Shown in pieces: positions 5,771 to 62,488 of a stretch of DNA of 64,000 nt. The notes beneath the pieces are model-generated. The model saw only the letters and a list, made by a program, of their open reading frames with translations, did no database searches and was not told the origin of the DNA. The first letter of the stretch is position 1. Each line of letters begins with the position of its first letter. Origin of the DNA: Eledone cirrhosa (taxonomy: Eukaryota); contig OZ024754.1 in the NCBI GenBank assembly GCA_964016885.1, positions 3,224,001 through 3,288,000 on the forward strand. Reading direction: 5' to 3'. The translations under genes and the position numbers were made by a program.

Positions 5771-6042
5771 TATATATATTTTAAATATTAGACTTAATTA
5801 TTTTATATATATACATATATAAAATAATTAAGTCTAATATTTAAAATTTGGTTTCGTTTACTAAAGGTGTACTGCTACATATATTTCGGTTACAGCCATC
5901 ATTAGCTGTGTCCTCTTCAGGCAGTCCGAATTGGTGTGGTAGAGACAGGTACACATGTTGTTGAAGTGTTTTACTCCGTCACTACTCCGATATGTCTAGC
6001 TCCTGGCTGGGTTGTTATTTCGCGGAGAAACTGGAATCATAT

Positions 6043-6216
<174 letters not shown>

Positions 6217-6242
6217 GTATATATATATATATATATACATAC

Positions 6243-6391
<149 letters not shown>

Positions 6392-6549
6392 TATATCTAT
6401 ATATATGTGTGTATATATATGTATATATACATATATATATCTATATATATGTGTGTATATATATGTATATATACATATATATATCTATATATATGTGTGT
6501 ATATATATGTATATATACATATATATATCTATATATATGTGTGTATATA

Positions 6550-6601
<52 letters not shown>

Positions 6602-6631
6602 TATCTATATATATGTGTGTATATATATATA

Positions 6632-6679
<48 letters not shown>

Positions 6680-6683
6680 GACG

Positions 6684-6734
6684 AGATTCTACAGGACTAG
6701 AACTGTTTCATTCTTTAGAAATCATCAGGAATCT
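6684..6734 (-). ncRNA. Type I hammerhead ribozyme (family 1), inverted partner of 7333-7383
   Basis: Reverse complement reads AGAUUC-CUGAUGA-UUUCUAAAGAAU-GAAA-CAGUUCUAGUCCUG-UA-GAAUCU. Confidence 0.75.
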
Positions 6735-7332
6735 GGGTATCAAAAAATAAGTATGGTATTTATAGGTCTCTTCAGGTTTGTAGGAGAGGGTAGGGAGTGG
6801 GATGGGTGTAGGTCATTGGTTGATAGAAAAGGGAATTCATTAAAAGCTAATTCTTCAAAGCTATAGTTTATATTTAGAGTAACAAAGACAGAAAGAATTC
6901 TATAAACAAGTTCTGGATGGGGTTCCACTCCTTATTTTTAAGTTTCTCTTAAGCTAACAATGCCTAGATATCAGGTGTCTATAAGACCATTGGGGGGTCA
7001 GTAAGTTTCTCTTAAGCTAACAATGCCTAGATATCAGGTGTCTATAAGACCATTGGGGGTCAGTCGACTGACCCCCAATGATCTTATAGACACCTGATAT
7101 CTAGGCATTGTTAGCTTCAGAGAAACTTAAAAATAAGGAGTGGAACCCCATCCAGAACTTGTTTATAGAATTCTTTCTGCCTTTGTTACTCTAAATATAA
7201 ACTATAGCTTTGAAGAATTAGCTTTTAATGAATTCCCTTTTCTATCAACCAATGACCTACACCCATCCCACTCCCTACCCTCTCCTACAACCTGAAGAGA
7301 CCTATAAATACCATATTTATTTTTTGATACCC

Positions 7333-7383
7333 AGATTCCTGATGATTTCTCCAGAATGAAACAGTTCTAGTCCTGTAGAATCT
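7333..7383 (+). ncRNA. Type I hammerhead ribozyme (family 1)
   Basis: AGAUUC-CUGAUGA-UUUCUCCAGAAU-GAAA-CAG(UUCUAGUC)CUG-UA-GAAUCU. Stem I AGAUUC/GAAUCU, stem III ACAG/CUGU; predicted cleavage after GUA at 7377. Confidence 0.75.
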
Positions 7384-7465
7384 CATCTATATTAAAACTT
7401 TTATACTCTGCAATGTATTGAGTACCTTACTTACTGTGGTTACCTCCGACTCAACCCGGAATAAC

Positions 7466-7469
<4 letters not shown>

Positions 7470-7549
<80 letters not shown>

Positions 7550-8602
7550 GTATGAGTATATTTTCTATATATAATTCATAAATATACATACTTATATATA
7601 TATATATATACGTATGAGTATATTTTCTATATATAATTCATAAATATACATACTTATATACATATATATATAAATATGTATATATTTGTGTATATACATA
7701 ATATATATATCAATATATATACATTTATGTCAGTATATATAATATATATATATAAATATGTATATTAATATATATATCTATATAAACATATATATTTATA
7801 TGTATATATATAATATCTATATAAATATATATATTAATTTGTATATTTTTTCTAAATATATATATATGTATCTATATATAATACATATATCTATATAAAC
7901 ATATATATTTATATGTATATATATATTTATGTGCATATATAATATATATATAAATATGTATATATATATATATATATAAAAATATATATATTTATATGTA
8001 TATATATATTTATGAGCATATATAATATATATATATAAAAATATATATATTTTAATGTATATATCTATATAAACATATGTATATTTATGTGTATATGTAT
8101 AATATGTATATATAATATATATATATATATATAAATATATATACCTTTATGTGTAATAGATTAATACATATGTATATATAATAATGTGTATATTTCTATA
8201 TCTACACATATTAATGTGTATATTTCTATATCTATATATATTTATGCATATATGTTAAATATATATATAAATGTGTATAATTATATTAATATATATATAT
8301 TTATGTGTATGACAAAAGATTAATATGGTTTGTTGATTACTCAATGAATACAGTTTTACAATAGATTAAAAGCACTCAAGTTTTCCTGAAGTTTTCCTGG
8401 AGTTTTTAATATTATTCAAAATATTAACAAATGAAAGATATTCACATAATATAATCTAGATCGTAGCGGTGTGTCATATATTAAATCATATATTTTATCT
8501 GATGAGGTCGTACTGAATAAAACAACAACACAGTACCTTTGAAATATATATAATAAAGTATATATTTTGATTATGGGAATATCTTTCATTTGTTAATATA
8601 TT

Positions 8603-11991: not shown

Positions 11992-12058
11992 TATTTTATT
12001 ATACATATTTCAGAGATACTGAGCTATCTTCAACAGTACGTCCTCATCAGATAAAATA
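11992..12058 (-). ncRNA. Type I hammerhead ribozyme (family 2), inverted partner of 12163-12229
   Basis: Exact reverse complement of the 12163-12229 motif within an inverted repeat. Confidence 0.65.
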
Positions 12059-12162
12059 AGATGATGCTTGACATAGTTAAAATTCAGTGATGGCAGTGAA
12101 TATGTCACTGCCATCACTGAATTTTAACCATCTACTTAGTCAAGGTATGTCAAGCATCATCT

Positions 12163-12229
12163 TATTTTATCTGATGAGGACGTACTGTTGAAGATAGCTC
12201 AGTATCTCTGAAATATGTATAATAAAATA
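12163..12229 (+). ncRNA. Type I hammerhead ribozyme (family 2)
   Basis: UAUUUUAU-CUGAUGA(12171)-GGACGUACUG..CAGUAUCUCU-GAAA-UAUGUA-UA-AUAAAAUA; 8-bp perfect stem I. Confidence 0.65.
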
Positions 12230-36017: not shown

Positions 36018-36185
36018 ATTAATATAGAAATGGCTTCTACAGGACTAGAACTGTTTCGTTAGAAGGAAATCATTTCCATCGAATGAAACAGTTCTAGTTC
36101 TGTAGAAGCCATTTCTATATTAAACATTATATAATTTATGTATTGAGTACCTTACTTACTCTGGTTACCTCCGATTGAACCTAAG
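36018..36185. mobile_element. Palindromic remnant of family-1 hammerhead element
   Basis: aatatagaaatggcttctacaggactagaactgtttc ... gaaacagttctagttctgtagaagccatttctatatt, then the shared tail; CUGAUGA lost. Confidence 0.55.

Positions 36186-42275: not shown

Positions 42276-62488
<20,213 letters not shown>

Follow-up and report, generated by a model that had tools for sequence, protein, structure and literature searches.

The window analyzed here (64,000 nucleotides of the Eledone cirrhosa genome, stretch 3224001–3288000 of C14) contains, between two TA microsatellites, a palindrome with a hammerhead ribozyme motif on each arm, which raises the question of what kind of element generates such an arrangement and whether the arrangement is itself functional. 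The first-pass annotation had read it as a product of a self-cleaving, non-autonomous retroelement family, related to Penelope-like elements (PLEs) or to retrozymes. Our analysis indicates that the locus is very probably a protein-less inverted pair of 5′-truncated pseudo-LTRs (pLTRs) of an autonomous, Hydra-clade Penelope-like retrotransposon. That the arm sequence is the pLTR of a Hydra-type PLE is nearly certain, and it is most improbable that the palindrome has a function of its own. Taken alone, such a palindrome is routine for PLEs; the family behind it is useful because it is young and has thousands of copies and intact ORFs, permitting counts that bear on how inverted pLTRs and one-sided tails originate.

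The locus lies in a 3.0-Gb, TA-rich genome and is flanked by (TA)n-type target microsatellites on the left (6037–6677) and right (7466–7550). The left arm (6678–7065, minus strand) is a 5′-truncated pLTR copy that lacks the tail and whose 3′ end runs into (TA)n, and the right arm (7066–7465, plus strand) is a 5′-truncated copy that retains the tail. The arms are identical at 316 of 323 aligned bases. They adjoin head to head (7060–7071) with no spacer between 7065 and 7066, the same pLTR base ending both. The left arm additionally contains a 63-bp tandem duplication at its truncated 5′ end (6939–7064, minus strand), of which 58 nt are 100% identical. An internal duplication of ~85–130 bp (~73% identical) is also present in the pLTR, comprising 7155–7243 and, in longer copies, the region upstream of the arm. 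Inspected by eye, none of the 70 ORFs in the 64-kb window was PLE-like, and the arm's own reading frames hold stops.

The hammerheads span 6684–6734 on the minus strand (predicted cut after 6690) and 7333–7383 on the plus strand (predicted cut after 7377). Both have the CUGAUGA, GAAA and GUA elements, a 6-bp stem I (AGAUUC/GAAUCU), a 3-bp stem II (UUC/GAA) flanked by U·U, a 4-bp stem III (ACAG/CUGU) and an 8-nt loop III that includes CUAG, and thus everything that defines a type I hammerhead (CUGANGA, GAAA, UH and three helices, open at helix I). Loop II is the family-typical UAAA in the left arm and UCCA, with two loop substitutions, in the right. A strict descriptor found these 2 sites in the window and 0 in each of 100 dinucleotide shuffles; a looser descriptor found 6 sites, against a shuffle mean of 0.04 and a maximum of 1. 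The full core, stems I and III and the CUAG loop are present on both arms as first described. At E≤10, none of the 12 Rfam matches to the 801-nt region was a hammerhead, nor was any of the 150 listed of the 391 matches for the whole window, the matches being only sub-threshold microRNA hairpins from the TA repeats and the palindrome. When 22 sequences from three subfamilies were compared, three pairs of stem I showed double changes, which represent few independent events, and stems II and III showed no compensatory changes; loop II varied freely and loop III little.

Genome-wide, the arm had 2,630 candidate matches, the best 40 of which were 94–100% identical to it. The exact 39-nt ribozyme core occurred 8,084 times and the exact 16-nt end of the tail 7,960 times, with control sequences occurring 0 times, which bears out the idea of a dispersed family. 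The family's copies have variable 5′ ends and two 3′ ends 66 bp apart (~7399 and 7465 in window coordinates), each entering TA repeats: tail-less copies stop at the first end (7384–7399, plus strand, with stops at ~7392–7399), and tailed copies extend to the second. The tail had been put at ~50 nt and shared; it is real, but it is 66 bp long (7400–7465, plus strand) and at the palindrome occurs on the right arm only. Recurrences of the motif had also been proposed at 36018, 46210, 46355 and 62169. Related sequence is present at all four places, but two of the stubs (36018–36181 and 46146–46330) are miniature inverted pairs whose truncation falls within the core. Among the other two, 62165–62310 keeps CUGAUGA (at 62178–62237), and 46340–46480 keeps it too (at 46349–46408), with a broken stem III. 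Three of these four stubs differ in stem I and are members of a sister subfamily, for which there are 3,367 candidates. A comparison with four contig sets revealed sequence of the family and of the array type described below in run X1, whose source may be the very sample used for the assembly.

The first-pass annotation had suggested looking for a link between the arm and a Penelope ORF, and the genome provides one. One copy runs past the tail into an ORF, with a second copy of the repeat downstream, and a search with the 5′ end of this ORF showed the window's tail directly abutting the RT/GIY-YIG ORF in 28 of 30 loci, the elements continuing for 48 nt beyond position 7465 to the start codon. 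The order pLTR, ORF, UTR, pLTR was seen in four loci (L061, L097, L100 and L102). The full element is ~5 kb long and consists of a pLTR with hammerhead and tail, an ORF of 713 amino acids containing both reverse transcriptase (RT) and GIY-YIG domains, a microsatellite-rich 3′ UTR of ~2 kb and another pLTR; L097 is a complete unit, with ~4.96 kb between its hammerheads. Intact ORFs of 711–714 amino acids were found in 8 of 14 extended loci, and six of them, equal in length, differ from each other by 9–35 of 2139 nt. These intact ORFs accompany pLTRs that are 83–96% identical to the window arm and thus represent sister subfamilies; in L061, the copy nearest to the window arm, the ORF is broken. 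The proposed Penelope-like origin with inverted pLTRs is thereby upheld, the arm being the pLTR of an ORF-bearing family, and the description of this family as non-autonomous is not supported, arm and ORF being contiguous and intact ORFs present. We had also considered the arm as the decayed tail of a GIY-YIG domain and rejected this, the arm lying 2 kb 3′ of the stop codon. In L097 (3690–5740) and the other full copies, the 3′ UTR contains 1–2.5 kb of TA/TG microsatellite after a splice-donor-like GTGAGT, so the element may spread its own target sequence. The 3′ UTRs of full copies also receive nested insertions, such as a LINE in L061.

Of 8,000 candidates scored against the encoded protein, P0001, 1,405 proved homologous, and the 120 listed were 39–54% identical to it. 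Its single ORF combines an RT (YRDDG) with a GIY-YIG domain (IVYKC...YIGMT), and also contains DKT116, RWR38, a CxCX5C linker (C566-C568-C574) and the residues C666/C669, E672, N685 and C694/H696, with CCHH absent. The DKT, the linker, the CxxC-E-N-CxH arrangement and the lack of CCHH are conserved in 107 homologues. RWR in place of RWK can be regarded as a conservative variant, because 71% of the 107 homologues have K. An AlphaFold model built from the 107-sequence alignment had a pLDDT of 93.5, and its top five PDB matches were telomerase RTs. Sequence searches of the PDB with P0001 gave no meaningful match. Pfam detected only a weak GIY-YIG domain in P0001 (E=0.067) and no RT; in eight homologues it placed GIY-YIG above the cut-off in one (P0072) and RT in none.

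Judged from sequence and compared by eye with the published proteins, P0001 carries the diagnostic motif set of the Hydra clade, a group of PLEs with a C-terminal endonuclease that includes Hydra-1_Obim, Hydra-1_Amil and Penelope-13_HM (Craig et al., 2021, PMC8557442). In the parts of that study compared here, clade members likewise have a single ORF of ~710 amino acids with DKT, a CxCX5C linker, CxxC and CxH around E and N and no CCHH, target (TA)n and carry a hammerhead close to the 3′ end whose core shares the CUGAUGA-U...U-GAAA layout, and Penelope-13_HM has an inverted 5′-truncated copy with a hammerhead on both strands (PMC8557442). Hydra-1_Obim is homologous but appears by eye to be a different family, its protein and hammerhead differing from those described here (PMC8557442). 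The element also departs from the published clade in having RWR rather than RWK (with GFK present at the N terminus), a loop III of 8 nt rather than the 1–3 nt of the 26 Hydra hammerheads listed, a tail of 66 bp rather than 30–40 bp and a length of ~5 kb rather than generally under 3 kb, a trait that is descriptive rather than diagnostic (PMC8557442) and is explained by the 2-kb microsatellite UTR. The family has the pLTRs, 5′ truncation, inverted 5′-truncated copy and tail at one end that are characteristic of endonuclease-containing (EN+) PLEs. The same architecture has been published, as far as the accounts covered here extend, in PMC8557442, PMC3846280 and PMC4209133, and the one-sided tail on inverted pLTRs has been reported qualitatively (PMC8557442, PMC3846280). 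In our literature search, which left most subscription papers and Repbase outside its scope, we found no paper on this family, on the counts given below or on the array; the only supplement covered was that of PMC8557442, and other supplements could list the family. The part of PMC13282606 that was covered mentions neither Hydra nor a hammerhead.

To what extent is the inverted geometry typical of the family? On contig C1, the first 100 exact matches to the core corresponded to 82 insertions, 47 of which were head-to-head pairs (in a table transcribed by hand that includes L207, whose arms are 1 kb apart and thus beyond the script's 800-nt window). In all, 45 of these 47 pairs combined one tailed arm with one tail-less arm (p=1.6e-11 against 0.5); of the two exceptions, one has lost part of a tail and the other has its partner at a distance of 711 nt. 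We consider it likely that pairs are generated by asymmetric priming at two ends. After a TA repeat is cut, the element's enzyme would start reverse transcription at each of the two DNA ends, one priming at the end of the tail and the other just behind the ribozyme; both would then be elongated with element RNA as the template, and the resulting truncated cDNAs joined head to head. At the longer palindrome of the window, the template would have reached upstream of the stem I start, that is, into the 3′ pLTR of a full transcript.

An explanation that dispenses with a second priming on RNA is that a single cDNA or inserted DNA snapped back and copied itself. The palindrome looks as such an event would leave it, with arms that end at the same base without a spacer and a left arm whose sequence lies within that of the right; 6 of the 7 long pairs, moreover, have arms that resemble each other more than the median copy does, and palindromic junctions are interpreted as self-priming in the relevant part of PMC3846280. 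Yet in three pairs (L122, L135 and L010) each arm holds sequence that is absent from its partner, so neither can have been copied from the other; tail-less single copies are common, implying that no partner is needed for use of the inner 3′ end; and fold-back alone does not account for the 45 mixed pairs. Fold-back is therefore unlikely as the general source of pairs, although the palindrome itself, with its right arm encompassing the left, may have arisen in this way. That the host maintains the palindrome as a hairpin RNA, either a small-RNA precursor or an editing substrate, is more improbable still and barely credible. A read-through RNA is predicted to fold at ~−585 kcal/mol, and Rfam matched the region to miRNA precursors, all below the cut-offs, but the arms are about as diverged as other copies, and 47 of the 82 insertions sampled are pairs of this kind, so the geometry requires no selection. 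Scarcely more probable is that the 790-bp unit is a non-autonomous ribozyme element of its own, a retrozyme replicating through a small circular RNA. The ORF is indeed absent from the majority of copies (98 of 100 sampled by the core and 27 of 30 sampled by the tail, leaving 2 and 3 that bear it), and short same-strand arrays as well as one very large array exist; however, the palindrome's two breakpoints recur in no fetched locus, breakpoints differing between copies, its ribozymes lie on opposite strands as an inverted pair rather than in a same-strand tandem, and in full elements the arm adjoins the ORF directly. The retrozyme reading offered earlier is thus not supported for this locus.

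Two-ended priming, our preferred explanation, has a parallel in the Poseidon element PAc of Anolis carolinensis (Frangieh et al., 2024, PMC11167929). In the portion of that work considered here, two internal starts of reverse transcription define the tail, targets are AT-rich, both strands are extended, insertion proceeds from uncut RNA and the hammerhead is assisted by protein, cleavage requiring the protein and being unnecessary for insertion (PMC11167929). PAc belongs to another PLE clade, and its ribozyme and tail overlap the ORF, whereas here both lie 5′ of the start codon. Its start site in vitro was equal between strands, in contrast to our 45 of 47 mixed pairs, and the 45/47 rule is thus not predicted by PAc. 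Penelope of Adineta vaga, so far as its description was compared, also has head-to-head inverted pLTRs with a tail on one, palindromic junctions and a putative TATA box and initiator in the pLTR; it differs in having few copies and no counts, and its junctions were ascribed to self-priming with an antisense template (Arkhipova et al., 2013, PMC3846280). A Penelope of D. virilis is described, in the part covered, as having a TATA-less internal promoter (PMC2377424).

The 5′ ends of copies are variable and yet concentrated at the ribozyme. Among 100 core copies, 51 began 0–7 nt before the core, with a peak at 5–6 nt (27 copies; window positions 7334/7333), and only 4 began 8–17 nt before it; of the 63 with 5′ ends within 40 nt of the core, 34 began at 4–6 nt. 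A sample of 30 tail copies, which overlaps the core sample, included 13 that began at 7331–7341. The right arm contains a TATAAATA box (7303–7310, plus strand) 30–31 nt before the pile-up at 7333/7334, and a TATA-like box, a putative promoter element, occupies 6757–6764 of the left arm (minus strand), 30 nt before stem I. Positions 7331–7337 fit the initiator consensus, and TATAAATA, starting at 7303, lies at the spacing usual for a TATA box. The 5′ ends of the copies thus point to transcription starting at the first bases of stem I, which we regard as probable, if less so than two-ended priming. Priming near the 5′ end of such an RNA would run off after 65–135 nt, which may explain the many stubs consisting only of the ribozyme. 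The 45/47 rule and run-off at the predicted start are direct predictions for a PAc-type assay with a Hydra-clade protein.

The same pile-up could mark a splice acceptor or a stop of reverse transcriptase at the ribozyme, as the T-rich run followed by CAG upstream of the ribozyme might suggest; an intron of D. virilis Penelope is reported, in the part of PMC4209133 covered, to end at helix I, and GAATC is nearly self-complementary, so junctions there may be favored. An acceptor boundary, however, would lie 4 nt before the core, where 7 of 100 copies begin, as against 27 of 100 at the 5–6-nt peak; copies that adjoin TA repeats without a partner stop at the same point, a TATA box lies 30–31 nt upstream, and the UTR motif after the stop codon continues unspliced in 20 of 20 matches, with no spliced copy among them. 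Splicing or an RT stop is accordingly the less likely explanation, though it deserves somewhat more credence than fold-back does for the pairs. We also considered an extra G derived from the cap, since G preceded A in 6 of 9 copies ending there, and rejected it as evidence because fold-back onto stem I explains the G equally well.

Does the hammerhead cleave? Activity in some context is slightly more probable than inactivity. For the monomer, the lowest predicted energy belongs to a fold other than the hammerhead, which makes up ~0.1% of the ensemble (z −0.3 to −0.5), and the predicted energy of helix III is −10.4 kcal/mol for a duplex in trans as opposed to −0.2 kcal/mol for a hairpin in cis, the trans value reaching −12.8 kcal/mol in a sister subfamily with a longer palindrome. 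The hammerhead may be a weak monomer that needs a second copy or the element's protein. The earlier suggestion of dimer action holds insofar as loop III suits trans pairing, but the ribozymes of the palindrome lie on opposite strands, so no one transcript contains both and a cis dimer is impossible; in a read-through RNA the ribozyme is predicted to be buried in the long hairpin, which would silence it. Copies with sequence on both sides of the cut derive from uncut RNA, and the majority of copies were probably made from such RNA. Of 30 tail copies, no more than 1 has its start close to the cut site. These observations are in keeping with the behavior of PAc. We did not count starts at the cut site as evidence: among 30 ORF copies, 4 start at arm positions 311–323 (cut 312/313), and three of these at TA microhomology.

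Exact cores were unevenly distributed between strands (3,300 versus 4,784), a skew that led us to look for same-strand tandems and to find an array on C28, where they are located (3,352 versus 217 between strands). The array extends from 30,496,749 to ~30,873,700 (~377 kb) and could contain up to ~4,800 units, interrupted by short insertions; units of 77–78 bp were found in 14 of 14 stretches sampled inside it and in 0 of 6 beyond. It begins with a TA repeat, then the family's inverted arm with tail, then tail-less units, and it is likely that one two-ended insertion of the family seeded it. Of 246 units sampled, 183 have an intact core, and with substitution rates of 0.023 in the core, 0.033 in the stems, 0.021 in loop II and 0.031 in loop III (from 246 units with at most 8 substitutions, units that are not independent), the core is not more conserved than the loops and no selection on it was seen. 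The unit lacks the TATA box. We regard an inert satellite that grew in place as the most likely interpretation. A bolder joint scenario seems rather improbable: RNA beginning with the hammerhead would be primed once at each fixed site flanking the cut, leaving thousands of stubs resembling strong-stop products, and the satellite so seeded would be transcribed and chopped into 78-nt RNAs, making it a newborn retrozyme that still has its parent junction.

Like animal non-LTR retrozymes and hammerhead satellites, in the parts of the accounts compared here, the C28 array is a same-strand tandem of complete type I hammerheads of PLE pLTR origin, a feature by which such retrozymes are recognized (PMC7229834; 10.64898/2026.07.22.740005). 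It differs from them in its 78-bp unit (versus 150–450 bp), in its ~4,800 units (versus up to 62 in coral), in lacking a TATA box and in a core without selection, and the palindrome differs in being an inverted pair rather than a tandem. A route from PLEs to hammerhead satellites has been argued from trees, in the portion covered here, by Li et al. (2026, 10.64898/2026.07.22.740005); the C28 array, which retains its parent junction, is a direct example of that route. Variants near the start of the array recur ~4.06 kb apart, possibly a higher-order repeat, with no such period at 30.78 Mb. A locus on C1 (L267, 350200260–350200890) contains ~8 units of the C28 type, with the 78-bp unit and junction and without TA flanks, and is possibly a displaced piece.

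Several further repeats were observed. Small same-strand tandems of hammerhead and tail, with periods of ~110–200 bp and a retrozyme-like layout, occur at C3:296721050–296721398, C4:279229097–279229680 and C9:23835382–23836186. ORF fragments of other Penelope-like families adjoin family copies in six loci (L013, L016, L024, L050, L021 and L017), and a tandem repeat of ~1 kb is common to L005, L007, L013 and L028. The window itself contains a third hammerhead-like motif with a CUGAAGA core and a 7-bp stem II between TA repeats (5876–5920, minus strand), and a second, unrelated hammerhead family with a long stem II at 8499–8552 (plus), 12000–12050 (minus) and 12171–12221 (plus), of which the pair at 12000–12221 has a head-to-head geometry like that of the palindrome at 6678–7465.
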